Program-made: the position numbers and the translations under genes
Part shown: in pieces, positions 2,245-14,108 of the stretch
Numbering within the stretch: the stretch's first letter is position 1
How the letters are laid out: each line of letters opens with the position of its first letter
Origin: an uncultured Syntrophales bacterium
Lineage (GTDB): Bacteria > Desulfobacterota > Syntrophia > Syntrophales > JAAYKM01
Length of the DNA: 40,286 bases
Direction of reading: 5' to 3'
Assembly: GCA_964411235.1 (NCBI GenBank)
Contig: CAYPKE010000002.1
Span: forward strand, 1-40,286
Notes under the pieces: generated by a model
Told to the model about the DNA's origin: nothing
The model's database searches: none
The model's input: only the letters and a program-made list of their open reading frames with translations

Positions 2245-3765
2245 ATGAAAAAGAAAGCCCCCGCCACACCGAAGAACGCTTCTGGCACAAAAACCGCGCG
2301 GGACCATTCGGCTCTTTATGAAAAAGAAGAAATAATCCCCATTGTCGACGACGATCTTTACAAAACCCTGGCCGACAGTTCACAAGTCGGCGTTTATATT
2401 CTGCAGCATCGCCGCTTCCGCTTTGTCAATCCTCACATCAGGGAATATGCGGGCTACTCCGAGGAAGAGATGCTGCATATGGATCCCCCGTCGATCATCC
2501 ACCCGGCGGACCGAAAAATGGCGCGGAAGAACGCTATCCGCATGCTTAAGGGACAGCGTTTTTCACCCTATGAGTTCCGCATTGTGACGAAAGACGGACG
2601 CATCAAGTGGATCATGGAAACCGTCAAGTCCATTCAATACCGGGGAGAACAGGCCGTCCTGGGCAATTCGATGAACACGACGGAGCAGAAGGAAGCCCGC
2701 AGTCGCCTGGAGGATTTGGAAGCCCTGGAATCCTCCATTCTCGACGCTATCCCCCATGCCGTCATCGGACTGCATAACCGGGTGTTCATCTTCGCCAACA
2801 ATGCGGTGATGCAGGTCTTCGGGTGGCGTCCGGAGGAGTTGATCGGAAAAAATGTCCGTCTTCTTTATCGCAACGAAACGGATTACGATGAAATCGCCCG
2901 ACGCTTCTATGCAGCACTGGAAACCCAGCGAACCTACAGCACGGAATTTCCCGCCCGGCGCAAGGACGGCCGGGAAATTCTGTGCTTGATGAAGGCCTCC
3001 CGTATCGGCGCCGTCCTTCGGGAACGAAGAATCGTCATCACTTATGAAGATATAACGGAGAAACAAAAGGCACAGCAGGAACTCGAAATGTCGCGGGAGC
3101 AGCTCCGCAACCTGTCGCTCCACCTCCAGTCGATCCGTGAAGAGGAACGAACCCGCATCGCGCGCGAGATCCACGATGAACTGGGTCAGTCCCTCACGGC
3201 CCTCAAAATGGACATCGTCTGGCTCGGAAACCGGATTTCCGAAAAGAATGCGACGCTGCAAAAGAAAGTTGAGTACATGTCATGCCTGATCGACAGCACA
3301 ATCGATACGGTGCATCGGATTTCTTCGGATCTGCGTCCGGGGCTGCTCGATGATCTCGGTCTGGTCGCCGCCATCGAGTGGCAAACCCAGGACTTTCAGC
3401 GCCGCTTCGGACTGGCCTGCCGCATCAATCTGGCCATAGCGGATGACGAAGAGATCGAGCACCACCTTGCAACCGCCCTCTTTCGCATTCTGCAGGAAAC
3501 ACTGACCAACATCATTCGTCATGCCGTGGCTACGGAAGTTGCCGTGCGATTCTGCGAAAAAAATGATACCCTCATCCTCGAAATCACCGACAACGGCCGG
3601 GGTATCACTCAGGCGCAGATCGATGATCCCCGCTCCTATGGACTGATCGGGATGCGTGAAAGGGTTCACCCCTGGAACGGAACTGTTCTGATTGAAGGAA
3701 AAATGAACCGGGGCACCCGGGTAACCGTCACCGTACCTCGCCAGGAAAGGAAATCACCGCCATGA
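2245..3765 (+). CDS. PAS-domain sensor histidine kinase (HisKA_3/NarX-type)
   Basis: Two PAS-like segments are followed by the H-box IAREIHDELGQSLTALK and an HATPase region (LTNIIRHA...DNGRGI...GLIGMRER). The gene overlaps the downstream regulator by 4 nt. Confidence 0.85.
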   Translation: MKKKAPATPKNASGTKTARDHSALYEKEEIIPIVDDDLYKTLADSSQVGVYILQHRRFRFVNPHIREYAGYSEEEMLHMDPPSIIHPADRKMARKNAIRMLKGQRFSPYEFRIVTKDGRIKWIMETVKSIQYRGEQAVLGNSMNTTEQKEARSRLEDLEALESSILDAIPHAVIGLHNRVFIFANNAVMQVFGWRPEELIGKNVRLLYRNETDYDEIARRFYAALETQRTYSTEFPARRKDGREILCLMKASRIGAVLRERRIVITYEDITEKQKAQQELEMSREQLRNLSLHLQSIREEERTRIAREIHDELGQSLTALKMDIVWLGNRISEKNATLQKKVEYMSCLIDSTIDTVHRISSDLRPGLLDDLGLVAAIEWQTQDFQRRFGLACRINLAIADDEEIEHHLATALFRILQETLTNIIRHAVATEVAVRFCEKNDTLILEITDNGRGITQAQIDDPRSYGLIGMRERVHPWNGTVLIEGKMNRGTRVTVTVPRQERKSPP

Positions 3766-4400
3766 TCAGGATCCTTGTCGTCGATGACCACGCCATCGTC
3801 AGGGAAGGTCTCAAGCAGATTCTCGGCGACGTCAAGGATATGGATGTTCTCGCCGAAGCGGCAAACGGACAGGAGGCCCTGGACAAAATCCGCCGCCAGG
3901 CCTTCGAGGTTATTCTGATGGACATTTCCATGCCGGGACGGAGCGGTCTGGAAATTCTCAAAGATATCAAGTCCGAACAGCCCAAACTCCCAGTTCTGAT
4001 CCTCAGCATGCATCCGGAAGAACAGTATGCTGTCCGGGCTCTGCGTGCCGGCGCCGCCGGATACATGAACAAAGCGAGTGCCCCCGACGAACTGATCGGG
4101 GCCATCCGGAAGGTCGCCTCCGGAAGAAAATACGTGAGCCCCTCCGTCGCGGAAAGGCTGGCCCTTGAACTGGGAGCGGATCGATCGCATCTTCCCCACG
4201 AATTGCTCTCCGATCGCGAGTATCAGGTCATGATGATGCTGGCGGCGGGCAAATCCGTATCCGAAATCGCTCTTGAGTTGTGCCTGAGCGTCAAGACGAT
4301 CAGTACCTACCGGTCTCGCATCATGGAGAAGATGAGCTTGAAGAAAAATGCCGAACTGACCCTGTACGCTGTACAGCATCATCTTCTGAGCGACACATGA
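3762..4400 (+). CDS. Response regulator, NarL/LuxR family (REC + LuxR HTH)
   Basis: MIRILVVDDH...ILMDISMPG...KAGAAGYMNK is a REC domain. The C-terminal LSDREYQVMMMLAAGKSVSEIALELCLSVKTISTYRSRI is a LuxR-type HTH. The ATGA overlap with the kinase gene suggests translational coupling. Confidence 0.9.
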   Translation: MIRILVVDDHAIVREGLKQILGDVKDMDVLAEAANGQEALDKIRRQAFEVILMDISMPGRSGLEILKDIKSEQPKLPVLILSMHPEEQYAVRALRAGAAGYMNKASAPDELIGAIRKVASGRKYVSPSVAERLALELGADRSHLPHELLSDREYQVMMMLAAGKSVSEIALELCLSVKTISTYRSRIMEKMSLKKNAELTLYAVQHHLLSDT

Positions 4401-4412
4401 CGTATATTTCTG

Positions 4413-4441
4413 TTGACAAACCGCTTTTTTTCTTCTATGAG
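4413..4441 (+). promoter_or_regulatory. Sigma-70-like promoter for the cimA leader
   Basis: TTGACA (4413-4418), a 17-nt spacer, then TATGAG (4436-4441). It sits about 45 nt upstream of the leader-peptide ATG. Confidence 0.45.
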
Positions 4442-4485
4442 ATGACCATCTTAGGTAATAAGGGAAGTTTGAAGGAAGCAAAGTC

Positions 4486-4557
4486 ATGGCAAACATCATT
4501 ACGCGTTCCATTATTATTATTGAGGGCATAATTAGCCCCTCTGACATGGGGACCTGA
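4486..4557 (+). CDS. Ile-rich leader peptide MANIITRSIIIIEGIISPSDMGT of the cimA attenuator
   Basis: A 23-codon ORF with 8 Ile codons, including a run of four (4510-4521). A GAAGGA Shine-Dalgarno-like motif lies at 4471-4476. The stop codon overlaps the predicted antiterminator arm. Confidence 0.6.
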   Translation: MANIITRSIIIIEGIISPSDMGT

Positions 4558-4589
4558 TAATGGTGTAGCCTAACCGCACAAGAAACTTC

Positions 4590-4629
4590 AAAATCCGTTA
4601 TCAGGACAACCTGATAACGGATTTTTTTT
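4590..4629 (+). terminator. Intrinsic terminator (attenuator) upstream of cimA
   Basis: A perfect 13-bp stem, atccgttatcagg (4593-4605) with cctgataacggat (4610-4622), has loop acaa and is followed by TTTTTTT (4623-4629). The left arm can instead pair over 11 bp with cctgataatgg (4553-4563). Confidence 0.75.
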
Positions 4630-4644
4630 ACAAGGAGATCACCC

Positions 4645-6240
4645 ATGGATAAAATGGACGTCTTAATCTACGACACAACGCTACGTGACGGAACTCAGGG
4701 GGAACAGATCAACTTCTCCGCCGAGGAAAAGCTGAGAATCGCCCAGCGGCTGGACGAAATGGGATTTCACTACATTGAAGGCGGGTGGCCCAGCTCAAAT
4801 CCAAAGGACATGCGTTTTTTTGAGATGGCCAAAAAAACGGTCTTCAAGAGCGCCCGCCTCACCGCCTTCGGCAGTACCCGGAAAGCCGACACCCGCCCCG
4901 AGGACTGCCCCAACCTGAATGCCCTGCTGGAAGCGGAAACTCCCGCGATTACTATTTTCGGCAAAACCTGGGATCTCCATGCGACGGAGATATTGGGGGT
5001 AAGCCTCGAGGAAAACGAGGCCATGATCTGGGATTCCGTCCGGTACATGAAAACCAAGGGGAAAGAAGTGGTTTATGACGCGGAACATTTCTTCGATGGA
5101 TTTAAAAACAACCAGCGTTATGCCATCAGGACCATCAAGACCGCCCTGTCCGCCGGGGCCGACTTTATCGTCCTTTGCGACACAAACGGCGGCACCATGA
5201 CCCATGAACTGTCCGAAATTATCGAGGAGATAAAGGCCTTCGTTTCCCCTCATATGTTGGGCATTCATGTTCATAACGACTGCGGCCTTGCCGTGGCCAA
5301 TTCCATTGCCGCCGCCCGGGCCGGAGCCAGAATGGTCCAGGGAACGATCAACGGATTCGGAGAGCGGTGCGGCAACGCCGACCTGATTCCCATCATTGCC
5401 AATCTGCAGGTTAAACTCGGGCTGACCTGTCTCCCTGAAGATTCGGTCAGGCATCTGACAAACCTGTCCAACTTCATCAGCGAAGTGGCAAACATGCCGA
5501 TCCTGAATTCACGGCCCTTCGTCGGAAAAAGTGCCTTCGCCCACAAAGGCGGCGTCCATGTCAGTGCCATTCTGAAAAACGCCTCCGCTTACGAACATAT
5601 CAAACCGGAACTGGTCGGCAACGAACAAAGGGTGCTTGTCTCTGACCTCTCCGGCAAGAGCAATATCGATTACAAGGCCCGGGAGTTGAATGTCGATCTC
5701 AGCACAGGCGAGGGAATGAGCCGCAAGATCGTCCAGAAGATCAAGGAGATGGAGGACAAGGGGTATCAGTTTGACGCGGCCGACGGATCTCTGGCACTGC
5801 TCATGAAAAAGGCCACGGGGGAATTCAAGGAGCCGTTTACCCTGGAATGCTTCCACGTCATCACATCCCAGACATCCACAAACCCCGCGCTTTCCCAGGC
5901 GACCATTAAGATATCCGTGGGCGGTGAAGTGGAAATCACCGCCGCCGAGGGAAACGGCCCGATCAACGCGCTTGACTTCGCTCTGCGGAAAGCTCTTACC
6001 AAGTTTTATCCGCAGATCAGCGAGATGCACCTCGTCGATTTCCGTGTCAGAATTCTGGAGGGCAGCGACGGCACCGGGGCCATGGTCCGGGTGCTTCTGG
6101 ATTCCCGCGACGAAACCGACTTCTGGAGTACGATCGGCGTCTCCTCCAACGTGATCGAAGCCAGTTGGCACGCCCTCGTCGACAGCATCCAGTACAAGTT
6201 GATCAAGGATAACCTTAACAAGAATCTGAAGGCAGGATGA
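4645..6240 (+). CDS. cimA: (R)-citramalate synthase (Ile biosynthesis, IPMS-like family)
   Basis: YDTTLRDGTQGE, HYIEGGWPSSNPKD, LCDTNGG, HVHNDCGLAVANS and the C-terminal regulatory domain AAEGNGPINALDFALRKAL closely resemble Geobacter-type CimA. AGGAG precedes the ATG. Confidence 0.9.
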   Translation: MDKMDVLIYDTTLRDGTQGEQINFSAEEKLRIAQRLDEMGFHYIEGGWPSSNPKDMRFFEMAKKTVFKSARLTAFGSTRKADTRPEDCPNLNALLEAETPAITIFGKTWDLHATEILGVSLEENEAMIWDSVRYMKTKGKEVVYDAEHFFDGFKNNQRYAIRTIKTALSAGADFIVLCDTNGGTMTHELSEIIEEIKAFVSPHMLGIHVHNDCGLAVANSIAAARAGARMVQGTINGFGERCGNADLIPIIANLQVKLGLTCLPEDSVRHLTNLSNFISEVANMPILNSRPFVGKSAFAHKGGVHVSAILKNASAYEHIKPELVGNEQRVLVSDLSGKSNIDYKARELNVDLSTGEGMSRKIVQKIKEMEDKGYQFDAADGSLALLMKKATGEFKEPFTLECFHVITSQTSTNPALSQATIKISVGGEVEITAAEGNGPINALDFALRKALTKFYPQISEMHLVDFRVRILEGSDGTGAMVRVLLDSRDETDFWSTIGVSSNVIEASWHALVDSIQYKLIKDNLNKNLKAG

Positions 6241-6389
6241 GCGATTCAGGCCGTCGAAGAAGGGAAACTAACCGCATCGGCATTCTTTAAATCAGGGCAT
6301 TGCAGTAAGGAATGATTTCTGTTATAGGCAGGTTGCCTGTCTTGCGTGATGGAGGTAACCCCTTAACATGGCTTTCATACGATGTTTTT

Positions 6390-6998
6390 ATGCTAGTTTC
6401 TCTGCATGAGCAGAATCCTCAGATTCGCTGGATCAAGAAAGCGGTGGAAATCCTGCGTCAGGGGGGGGTTGTTGTCTATCCGACGGATACGGTATACGGT
6501 CTCGGTTGTGATTTACTCAACAAAAAAGGAATTGAAAGAATCTACGACATTAAAAAGAGAGACCGCAAACAGCCTCTTAGCTTTATCTGTTCCGACCTGA
6601 AAGACATCAGCCAATACGCACAGGTATCCGATTTCGCCTACAAGGTCATGAAACGGCTCCTCCCCGGTCCTTACACGTTTGTCCTCAAGGCCTCCCGGGC
6701 CGTGCCCAAAATCATCATCCCCAAAAGACAGACGACGGGTATCCGCGTGCCGGACAACCGCATCTGTATGGCCCTGGTCGCCGAACTGGGGCGGCCGATC
6801 ATCAGCACAAGTGTTAAACATGAAGATGGCGAAATCATCACTGACCCGCAGGAAATTGAAAAAAAATACCACCACCTTGTGGATTTGGTCCTCGACGGTG
6901 GCATCTCTTCCGCAACGCCGTCCAGCGTTCTGAACCTGGTCGAGGACGTCGTGGAAATCATCAGAATCGGAAAAGGCGACGTATCCGCCTTTCAATAA
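6390..6998 (+). CDS. tsaC: L-threonylcarbamoyladenylate synthase (YrdC/Sua5 family)
   Basis: VVVYPTDTVYGLGCD, RIYDIKKRDRKQPLSF and TTGIRVPD are typical YrdC-domain motifs. The likely start is the Met at 6390; the track ORF starts at 6312. Confidence 0.85.
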   Translation: MLVSLHEQNPQIRWIKKAVEILRQGGVVVYPTDTVYGLGCDLLNKKGIERIYDIKKRDRKQPLSFICSDLKDISQYAQVSDFAYKVMKRLLPGPYTFVLKASRAVPKIIIPKRQTTGIRVPDNRICMALVAELGRPIISTSVKHEDGEIITDPQEIEKKYHHLVDLVLDGGISSATPSSVLNLVEDVVEIIRIGKGDVSAFQ

Positions 6999-9909: not shown

Positions 9910-10118
9910 GCCCCTTCCTCCCTCACGTTTTGCTGCACTGTAGAAATCCAACATTTTGCCGGTCATGTCAACCTGAAATCCAGGGAATGAATCCTTACTG
10001 CCATGATTAAGCAACGTTTTTGACCTTCAACCTTGTATTTTCCGATGCTTTTATGGTAGGCAGGATGTCTCTGACTTTTTCAGAGTCGGAAGGAAACGAA
10101 CTCGCTCACAGGGGGTGC

Positions 10119-10418
10119 ATGGTGGTTCTCGGAAATCTTATCGCCTTGGTTGCCAAGATTCTCTTTTATGCTCTTAATATTTACATGTGGATCATCATTA
10201 TTCGAGCCCTTCTGTCCTGGGTCAACCCGGACCCGTACAACCCGATCGTACAGTTCCTGTACAAGGTGACCGAGCCGGTGCTCTCGTTTGTCCGGAGAAA
10301 GCTGCCTATCGCTTCTTTCGGAATTGATTTTTCGCCCCTGATCGTTATTCTGATTATCTGGCTCCTGCAGGAATTTCTGGTTCGGCCCCTGATGATAATG
10401 GGTCTGCGGCTGCACTGA
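10119..10418 (+). CDS. yggT: YggT family membrane protein
   Basis: IIIRALLSWVNPDPYNPIVQFLYKVTEPVL..R is the YggT signature. The start was taken at ATG 10119 after AGGGGG. Confidence 0.8.
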   Translation: MVVLGNLIALVAKILFYALNIYMWIIIIRALLSWVNPDPYNPIVQFLYKVTEPVLSFVRRKLPIASFGIDFSPLIVILIIWLLQEFLVRPLMIMGLRLH

Positions 10419-12490: not shown

Positions 12491-13762
12491 ATGCTGGATA
12501 TCAAATTCATTCGGCAGCATACCGACTTAGTCCGGCAGAAACTCACCGAAAGAGGGCAGACCCTGAATCTGGATGAGTTCATCCGTCTCGAAGCGAAGAG
12601 ACGCAACATCCTGCAGGATGTGGAAGCCCTCCGGAACGAGCGCAATGTTGTCTCCAAGCAAGTCGGTGAGAGGAAAAAACTCAAAGAAGACGCCTCTGAG
12701 CTCATTGAAAGGATGGGGGACGTATCCGCCCGCATTAAGGATCTGGACGAAAACCTCGCCCAGACGGAGGATATGCTTCACAAGCTGGTGATGATGATGC
12801 CCAATCTTCATCACGAAAGCGTCGTTTACGGCCAGGGATCTGATGACAACCCGATCGTTCGCTCCTGGGGAGAAAAAAAAGTCTTTCCGTTCAAACCGAA
12901 ACCACACTGGGATATCGGCGAAGACCTACAGATCCTTGATTTTGCGCGGGGCGCCAAGATTGCGGGCGCCCGTTTCACCGTCTACCGCGGAGCGGGGGCT
13001 TTGCTGGAAAGGGCTCTGCTTAATTTCATGCTCGATCTCCATACCCGGGAGCACGGATATACGGAAGTTCTGCCGCCGTTCCTGGTCAATCGGGACAGCA
13101 TGACCGGCACAGGACAACTGCCCAAGTTTGAGGAAGATCTCTTCCGGATCGAGAAATTCGATTACTTCCTCATCCCCACGGCGGAAGTTCCCGTAACGAA
13201 TCTCCATCGAGATGAAGTGCTGGGAGAAAAAGATCTTCCCGTTCGATACGTGGCGTGGACACCGAGTTTTCGCGCCGAGGCCGGCTCTTACGGTAAAGAT
13301 ACGCGGGGGTTGATCCGGCAGCACCAGTTCAACAAGGTGGAACTGGTCAAGTTCGCCCATCCGGACACATCCTATGATGAGCTGGAAAAACTGACGGCCG
13401 ATGCCGAAGAAGTACTGAAACGGCTGAACATTCCTTTCCGGACCGTGAGTCTCTGCAGCGCCGATCTGGGATTTTCATCCGCGAAAACCTACGATCTTGA
13501 AGCCTGGCTGCCGGGACAGGACACATACCGGGAAATCTCTTCTTGTAGCAATTTCGAAGACTTCCAGGCACGCCGCGCCTCGATACGATTTCGCCGGGAA
13601 CAGGGGGGAAAGATCGATTACGTCCACACCCTGAACGGCTCGGGTCTGGCCGTCGGCAGAACGGTGGTGGCGATCCTGGAGAACTATCAGGAAGAAGATG
13701 GCTCCGTCACCGTTCCTGAAATTCTCCGGCCATACATGCGTGGCATGGATCGGATTCGCTAA
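12491..13762 (+). CDS. serS: Seryl-tRNA synthetase
   Basis: An N-terminal coiled-coil arm (MLDIKFIR...) is followed by class II motifs [25 protein letters not shown] and GSGLAVGRT. Confidence 0.95.
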
Positions 13763-13782: not shown

Positions 13783-13868
13783 GGAGGGATGGCCGAGTGG
13801 TCTAAGGCGGCGGTCTTGAAAACCGTTGACCGAAAGGTTCGCGGGTTCGAATCCTGCTCCCTCCGCCA
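13783..13868 (+). tRNA. tRNA-Ser (anticodon UGA)
   Basis: Manual cloverleaf: acceptor GGAGGGA/TCCCTCC, anticodon stem GCGGT/ACCGT, loop CTTGAAA, a long variable arm, GGTTCGAATCC T-loop, and an encoded CCA. Confidence 0.9.
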
Positions 13869-13924
13869 TATATAACGATCGGAAATGCCGTCCTTTACGG
13901 ATCCCCAGGAAGAGGACGATCAGC

Positions 13925-14018
13925 GGAGAGATGGCTGAGTGGCCGAAAGCGATCGCCTGCTAAGCGATTGTACGCCCTAAAAGGTGTACCGCGGGTTCAA
14001 ATCCCGCTCTCTCCGCCA
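13925..14018 (+). tRNA. tRNA-Ser (anticodon GCU)
   Basis: Acceptor GGAGAGA/TCTCTCC, anticodon stem ATCGC/GCGAT, loop CTGCTAA, a long variable arm, GGTTCAAATCC T-loop, and an encoded CCA. Confidence 0.9.
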
Positions 14019-14031
14019 TTTTATATATCAT

Positions 14032-14108
14032 GCGCCCATGGCTCAGCTGGATAGAGCGCCAGACTACGAATCTGGATGTCGGAGGTTCGAATCCTCCTGG
14101 GCGCGCCA
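14032..14108 (+). tRNA. tRNA-Arg (anticodon ACG)
   Basis: Acceptor GCGCCCA/TGGGCGC, D-arm GCTCAGCTGGATAGAGC, anticodon stem CCAGA/TCTGG, loop CTACGAA, GGTTCGAATCC T-loop, and an encoded CCA. Confidence 0.9.

Follow-up and report, generated by a model that had tools for sequence, protein, structure and literature searches.

Control of biosynthetic genes by ribosome-mediated attenuation at a leader peptide is a textbook mechanism, and the closest described systems concerned with isoleucine are the ilvL leader of ilvGMEDA and the ivbL leader of ilvBN in E. coli and Salmonella, each of which combines a short leader open reading frame (ORF) rich in codons for the end products, alternative 1:2, 2:3 and 3:4 helices, and an intrinsic terminator ahead of the first biosynthetic gene. 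Here we analyze a region with the same layout upstream of cimA, the predicted gene for (R)-citramalate synthase, in a 40,286-nucleotide (nt) stretch of DNA from an uncultured Syntrophales bacterium (contig CAYPKE010000002.1 of assembly GCA_964411235.1, forward strand; hereafter the window). Folding, conservation and covariation in silico support the view, put forward in a preliminary description of the sequence, that this region is very probably a classical Ile-specific, ribosome-mediated transcription attenuator controlling cimA. As proposed here, isoleucine supply would be controlled through tRNA charging as read by a ribosome, just as it is by ilvL and ivbL. The enterobacterial leaders are multivalent (Ile, Val and Leu, or Val and Leu) and control ilv genes, whereas the cimA leader is enriched in Ile only and precedes cimA in an anaerobic syntroph lineage, the Syntrophales.

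A second parallel is thrL, where Ile codons in a leader peptide likewise influence the expression of a gene supplying isoleucine synthesis; its regulatory codons are a mixture of Thr and Ile and its target is the threonine route, whereas the cimA leader stands on the threonine-independent citramalate route. The regulatory logic is that of trpL, in which a stalled ribosome frees region 2 to pre-empt region 3 while a ribosome at the stop codon blocks region 2 and so leads to the terminating 3:4 helix, and in which, as in the case analyzed here, the terminated conformer is thermodynamically favored and the switch is kinetic. The two differ in detail: trpL has two adjacent Trp codons, against eight regulatory codons in three clusters in the cimA leader; its stop codon lies between regions 1 and 2, whereas that of the cimA leader lies inside region 2 (in relatives, 13 nt past its start); and the 1:2 pairing of the cimA leader is weaker and less conserved. 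None of ilvL, ivbL, thrL and trpL shows sequence similarity to the cimA leader.

The T-boxes of leuA-family genes offer a third comparison, since they too sense tRNA charging through a choice between terminator and antiterminator, and the genes that they precede encode enzymes of the family to which CimA belongs. A T-box, however, works independently of translation, by direct binding of uncharged tRNA. The cimA leader instead contains an Ile-rich ORF that is probably translated, and has neither a Stem I/specifier nor a T-box sequence. The preliminary description mentioned T-box regulation of leuA/cimA-like genes in some deltaproteobacteria; this holds for leuA of Geobacter, whose genome paper reports a Leu T-box on that gene but not on cimA (PMC2700814), and does not extend to the present locus, where the T-box model RF00230 is absent both from the window at gathering score and from positions 4380-4680 at E≤10. 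In Bacillota, COG0119 genes (isopropylmalate and citramalate synthases) are T-box regulated, tandem T-boxes included (PMC12452182). We found no prior description of the element in literature searches directed at leader peptides or attenuators of cimA, at attenuation in Deltaproteobacteria, Geobacter or Syntrophus, and at cimA T-boxes, with subscription journals thinly covered. What is new is therefore not the mechanism but an order-wide, Ile-only attenuator on cimA for which we found no published description. We know of no described attenuators in the Syntrophus/Smithella lineage.

The elements of the switch lie between a response-regulator gene and cimA (Table 1). The leader contains eight Ile codons in three clusters (4495-4500, 4510-4521 and 4528-4533), the middle one being four consecutive ATT codons, as previously described. 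A run of four in-frame Ile codons is expected 0.27 times per window and was observed twice; the other run (ATHx4, 10191-10202) was rejected as a leader, lying inside a YggT-like membrane-protein ORF at 10020-10418. The core of region 2 (r2), which overlaps the end of the leader, and the core of region 4 (r4) are almost identical in sequence, and each is complementary to the core of region 3 (r3). The r2:r3 pairing spans 11 base pairs (bp), including one G-U (4553-4563 with 4595-4605). The r3/r4 stem joins ATCCGTTATCAGG (4593-4605) to CCTGATAACGGAT (4610-4622) in 13 perfect bp, extended to 16 bp by A-U pairs (4590-4625), and is followed by a run of seven T that ends 15 nt before the cimA start codon. 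All of these elements stand as first described, including the promoter-like pair TTGACA-17-TATGAG, whose position is conserved in relatives. The exception is region 1: the motif CCATTAT (4508-4514) is indeed the exact reverse complement of ATAATGG (4557-4563), but the minimum free energy (MFE) structure does not use this register and pairs region 2 with 4493-4503 and 4505-4509 instead.

Table 1. Coordinates of the putative cimA attenuator and of the adjoining genes in the window
Feature	Position	Strand	Remarks
PAS-domain histidine kinase	2245-3765		upstream of cimA; 4-nt overlap with the response regulator
NarL/UvrY-type response regulator	3762-4400		upstream of the leader
Sigma-70-type promoter-like pair	4413..4441	+	TTGACA 4413-4418, 17-nt spacer, TATGAG 4436-4441; read directly
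Shine-Dalgarno-like GAAGGAAG	4471..4478	+	7 nt before the leader ATG; sequence read only
Leader ORF, 23 codons plus TGA, MANIITRSIIIIEGIISPSDMGT	4486..4557	+	8 Ile codons
Region 1	4493..4516	+	overlaps Ile codons; pairs with region 2 without ribosome; duplex -20.5 kcal/mol
Hairpin P1	4536..4551	+	CCCC 4536-4539 / GGGG 4548-4551; local fold -7.8 kcal/mol
Region 2, core CCTGATAATGG 4553-4563	4542..4566	+	antiterminator 5' strand; contains stop TGA 4555-4557
Region 3, core CCGTTATCAGG 4595-4605	4590..4605	+	shared strand; partner is region 2 or region 4
Region 4, CCTGATAACGGATTTT	4610..4625	+	terminator stem 3' strand; core CCTGATAACGG 4610-4620
T-run of intrinsic terminator	4622..4629	+	T8; T7 past the 13-bp stem; read directly
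Shine-Dalgarno AAGGAG of cimA	4632..4637	+	outside the terminator hairpin; read directly
cimA, (R)-citramalate synthase, 531 amino acids	4645..6240	+	TIGR00977; putative regulated gene

To evaluate the energetics of these alternatives, we folded the leader region in full and in part. The MFE structure of the full region combines a region 1:2 hairpin (helices 4493-4503/4555-4566 and 4505-4509/4549-4553) with the 16-bp terminator, at -58.5 kcal/mol (z score -4.46 relative to dinucleotide shuffles); the 2:3 and 3:4 duplexes have energies of -17.0 and -24.4 kcal/mol, respectively. When the transcript is cut before r4 (at 4609), mutually exclusive structures appear, depending on where a ribosome is placed. 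Unmasked, this transcript forms the long region 1:2 hairpin; masked to 14 nt past the Ile codons, as by a stalled ribosome, it forms the r2:r3 antiterminator at -16 to -17 kcal/mol; and masked through the stop codon, it leaves r3 unpaired and free for r4.

These structures suggest the following sequence of events, in which we infer that the leader is translated, that RNA polymerase pauses and is coupled to the ribosome, and that read-through depends on Ile. Transcription would start from the promoter at about 4413-4441, giving a nascent RNA that bears the leader, with GAAGGAAG as its putative ribosome-binding site. With charged tRNA-Ile plentiful, the ribosome would reach the stop codon inside region 2 and cover that region, so that the 3:4 stem (13-16 bp plus U-run) would form and RNA polymerase would terminate before cimA. 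With charged tRNA-Ile scarce, the ribosome would stall on the Ile codons (4495-4533), covering region 1 and P1 and leaving region 2 free to pair with the emerging region 3, which would block the terminator and allow cimA to be transcribed. Without any ribosome, region 1 would tend to sequester region 2 and the terminator would form. Hairpin P1, directly after the Ile run and adjoining region 2, may act as a pause or anti-antiterminator element.

To determine whether this organization is a property of one genome or of a lineage, we scanned the CimA protein against one genome per species and recovered 80 loci (81 with the window). All 80 are from Syntrophales (Syntrophus, Smithella, and metagenome-assembled genomes (MAGs) of Syntrophaceae and Smithellaceae), with a CimA protein identity of 68-75%. 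An Ile-rich small ORF precedes cimA in about 74 of the 80, for example MNTIIMIYIIISIIIISFPIRGLVVE, so that the Ile run, too, is conserved in orthologous leaders. A finder that looks for perfect-stem terminators missed most relatives, and we searched instead for the motif CCGYTRYCAGG followed by a T-run; this identified the terminator in 76 of 81 loci, each with at least five T after the stem, and inspection by eye added three more, for a total of 79. The only two loci without the attenuator are L005 and L019, in both of which cimA lies directly behind another gene (in L005, a solute-binding-protein-like gene), suggesting that the attenuator was lost there by rearrangement. The r3-r4 motif did not recur elsewhere in the window or in the loci; a match on the minus strand is the same near-palindromic hairpin. 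Six outgroup cimA loci, reached by profile search in other phyla (Thermodesulfovibrio, Paenibacillus, Zhaonella, Calderihabitans, a Bacteroidota MAG and a Nitrospinota MAG), have no Ile leader beside cimA and no Rfam match; some of these cimA genes lie within leuCD-leuB or behind ilvC.

In an alignment of 72 sequences (MAFFT), both helices of the switch are under selection for pairing. For the terminator helix, 85% of cells are paired, compared with 29-48% for slid controls; double changes occur at six pairs, and none of 500 shuffles reached its covariation score. The antiterminator helix (alignment columns 87-100 with r3) is paired in 88.8% of cells, compared with 29-53% when slid. The shared strand r3 occurs in only about four haplotypes across the 72 loci, because it has two partners to satisfy, whereas r2 and r4 do vary, with transitions predominating, without losing their complementarity to it. 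This three-way covariation is illustrated at r3 column 150, where the r2:r3:r4 combinations are G:C:G in 37 sequences, A:T:A in 12, G:T:G in 8, G:T:A in 7 and A:T:G in 5, with 3 mismatches. Even among the closest relatives of the window (82-88% CimA identity), a compensatory U-A to A-U change is seen at the base of the stem, and an A-U to G-C change in L089; compensatory changes preserve both the terminator and the antiterminator helix. When a footprint mask alone is used to model a ribosome at the first Ile pair, the r2:r3 pairing forms in all 66 parsed loci except one. The 3:4 hairpin is more stable than the 2:3 helix in 68 of 72 loci, with means of -20.3 and -16.2 kcal/mol, respectively.

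Several observations weigh against an Ile-specific attenuator, or against parts of it. In equilibrium folding of the full-length leader, the terminator wins even with the Ile codons masked, and forcing the r2:r3 pairing costs 15 kcal/mol relative to the MFE structure. This persistence reflects equilibrium and is nothing against the model: since the terminator is always favored at equilibrium, the switch must be kinetic and co-transcriptional, as in the trp paradigm. The r2:r3 helix also forms with no ribosome present in a shorter window construct and in many of the relatives. Of all parts of the model, the region 1:2 element is the least robust. In the absence of a ribosome, most of r2 (at least 7 nt) pairs with upstream sequence in 56 of 72 loci, in a variable register. 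A P1-equivalent hairpin with clade-specific arm sequences is present in 94% of the 72 loci (mean z score -2.4); its arms are out of register in the MAFFT alignment, and column covariation was replaced by per-sequence folding. The covariation itself largely separates two clades (GTTATC and GCTGCC types), and there are fewer independent events than the cell counts imply. The start codon of many of the 65 parsed leaders behind the codon counts given below was assigned heuristically. The -10 hexamer in the window is weak, lacking the final T of the consensus, and is hence absent from a consensus promoter-scan listing.

The same alignment points to selection on translation of the leader. The first two codon positions of the Ile columns are almost always A and T, whereas the third can be A, T or C, and a third-position G, which would give Met, occurs in only 3-5 of the 72 sequences. 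Free third positions indicate selection for the Ile codon and not for the RNA sequence. The stop codon, too, holds a fixed position relative to the start of r2, with an offset of +13 in most loci, +2 in the window along with four other loci and, in a few cases, -3 or -7, which places a terminating ribosome always over r2. This codon periodicity and the fixed stop argue against a switch that works without translation, responding in the manner of a T-box or riboswitch to a ligand, a protein or uncharged tRNA, with the Ile-rich ORF incidental. A terminator/antiterminator pair would suit any such switch, r3 is nearly invariant across the order, r2:r3 pairing without a ribosome is possible in many loci as described above, and the T-boxes on Geobacter leuA (PMC2700814) and Bacillota COG0119 genes (PMC12452182) show that the enzyme family can be regulated in this way. 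However, no relevant Rfam family, whether T-box or leader, matched the window at gathering score or positions 4380-4680 at E≤10, and no amino-acid leader family matched in eight related loci. RNAalifold on the 72 sequences returned the terminator only, with no conserved aptamer-like domain upstream of r2 (the antiterminator and P1 were tested as named structures or per sequence). We therefore consider a translation-independent switch very unlikely.

The composition of the leaders bears on what the translating ribosome would report. Ile accounts for 496 of 1579 leader codons (31%; 65 leaders), compared with 6.6% in CimA, and the next commonest residue, Gly, reaches 10%. The Ile codons are ATT (206), ATA (153) and ATC (137). 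The share of ATA is thus 31% among leader Ile codons, compared with 14% among those of the cimA genes, an enrichment of about 2-fold that could be due to sensing of the minor tRNA-Ile2 or simply to a requirement for RNA that is rich in A+U and unstructured. Since the architecture responds to ribosome position whatever the cause of a stall, and since ATA is usually a slowly decoded minor codon, the element might sense any slowing of translation, as in global starvation or when transcription and translation come uncoupled, and not Ile in particular. The enrichment is nevertheless for one amino acid only, and CimA is specific to the Ile branch, which makes general sensing of translation highly improbable.

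The genes around the element provide a further test. The pair of histidine kinase and response regulator lies upstream of cimA only in the window and its closest relatives, L087 and L089; among the 80 loci, this response regulator is found upstream in none and the histidine kinase in one. Because the leader is kept with cimA while the upstream genes are not conserved, the element belongs to cimA and not to an upstream operon. This is difficult to reconcile with a plain constitutive terminator, serving as an insulator of the two-component operon or as a stabilizer of its RNA end, with cimA expressed from elsewhere and with the ORF and the r2 complementarity due to chance. The hairpin does sit downstream of the response-regulator gene that ends at 4400, and its near-palindromic stem, with an A-run on the 5' side, scores as a terminator on the minus strand as well. 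But r2 co-varies with r3; the element accompanies cimA in 79 of 81 loci despite differing upstream genes; and a promoter-like pair is conserved between the upstream gene and the leader (TTGACA-17-TAnnnT at a constant distance, about 200-230 nt before the end of the T-run, in 52 of 71 related loci, with TTGACAA invariant in the three closest relatives). The 15 nt between T-run and cimA leave no room for a promoter: the best match of a promoter scan there (4627-4655, TTTACA-17-TAAAAT, 10 of 12 positions) overlaps the T-run and the cimA start, places its -10 hexamer downstream of the ATG, and is most likely a chance match in A+T-rich sequence. A plain terminator is thus extremely unlikely.

At the 3' end of the ORF, it is the nucleotides and not the peptide that are conserved. 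Relative to L087 and L089, the window has a 1-nt deletion (4546-4557), a difference also present in L057 and L023; the window peptide accordingly ends ...DMGT at the TGA within r2, whereas L087 and L089 read ...IGDLIMV and stop at TAA or TAG 13 nt after the r2 start. The ORF is kept in most loci and a C-terminal ...FPIGGLAVE recurs in Smithella-type loci, but a hydrophobic micropeptide with a function of its own (a small membrane peptide, for example), with the hairpin merely its terminator, is scarcely credible, because only the Ile content and the P1/r2 nucleotides are conserved while length varies from about 13 to 31 codons, because the conserved 3' nucleotides are read in one frame in the window and L057 and in another in their nearest relatives, so that the C-terminus is not under protein-level selection, and because a terminator 15 nt before an essential biosynthetic gene without its own promoter would leave cimA unexpressed.

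The Ile-only composition of an attenuator on cimA fits the function predicted for its product. Citramalate synthase, which is known in methanogens, Leptospira and Geobacter, condenses pyruvate and acetyl-CoA toward 2-oxobutanoate, which is used only for isoleucine, and is the committed step of the threonine-independent route; with a product dedicated to Ile, an Ile-only leader is fitting. The identity of the gene is confirmed by its sequence: residues 6-524 match the TIGR00977 citramal_synth equivalog with E 5e-217 and 721.3 bits (cut-off 450), while the isopropylmalate synthase models score far under their cut-offs, and citramalate synthase activity is predicted from this match. The Pfam domains are HMGL-like (PF00682), HCS_D2 (PF22617) and a C-terminal LeuA_dimer (PF08502), the last of which suggests additional feedback inhibition of CimA.

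Members of the LeuA family are prone to mis-annotation, many database copies being labeled 2-isopropylmalate synthase, and the leader supplies independent, regulation-based evidence that this LeuA-family enzyme serves isoleucine synthesis in Syntrophales. By implication, these syntrophs regulate entry into Ile synthesis at the citramalate route, in contrast to the T-boxes on leuA-family genes in Geobacter and Bacillota and to the placement of such genes in leu or ilv operons elsewhere. The leader would also extend leader-peptide attenuation, which needs tight coupling of transcription and translation, to slow-growing, anaerobic, syntrophic Thermodesulfobacteriota, while the understanding of attenuation itself is unchanged. 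With about 80 members and clean three-way covariation of r2, r3 and r4, the element is suited to a curated RNA family and to testing methods for the detection of alternative structures.

Downstream, about 59 of the 80 loci share the gene order cimA-tsaC-RNase G. Between cimA and tsaC lies a gap (6241-6389 in the window) that is mostly 85-100 nt long and lacks a strong terminator in 56 of 62 loci; a strong one is present in 6 of 62, and Syntrophus loci have a strong terminator there. The gap contains a conserved promoter-like motif, TTGCnA-17-TATAnn (6300-6328 in the window), indicating that the real start of tsaC is the ATG at 6390 (202 amino acids, as called in relatives) and not 6312. TsaC makes threonylcarbamoyl-AMP for N6-threonylcarbamoyladenosine at position 37 (t6A37) of ANN-reading tRNAs, tRNA-Ile among them, and t6A37 is an identity element for the isoleucyl-tRNA synthetase of E. 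coli. Read-through under Ile starvation could thus raise both Ile synthesis and, via tsaC, t6A37, and the ATA enrichment might make the sensor report chiefly on the minor, lysidine-dependent tRNA-Ile2; if so, read-through would boost a modification that aids the charging and decoding of tRNA-Ile. The promoter-like motif in the gap and the Syntrophus terminator argue against co-transcription of cimA and tsaC, and we regard this extension as unlikely.

About 13 Smithella-type loci have a structured insert of 45-250 nt between the T-run of the attenuator and cimA. It is of two types, the first being GTGAGATCCCAATTTCAG...CTGAAATTGG...GAACAATCCCGCAAAGCGGTGGTTTT, and occurs in L010, L014, L016, L040, L042, L060 and L077 (about 2908-2991 in L014, L016 and L060) and in L015, L018 and L064 (2916-2982). 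The insert has no match in Rfam. A 19-nt piece of it recurs inverted just 3' of cimA in L014; a small repeat element is one possible explanation of the insert, a second hairpin followed by a U-run another. In the window, an antisense ORF of 326 amino acids (minus strand, 3666-4646) spans the response-regulator gene and the entire leader and is most likely spurious. Farther downstream, serS (12491-13762) is directly followed by genes for tRNA-Ser(TGA), tRNA-Ser(GCT) and tRNA-Arg(ACG) at 13783-14108.

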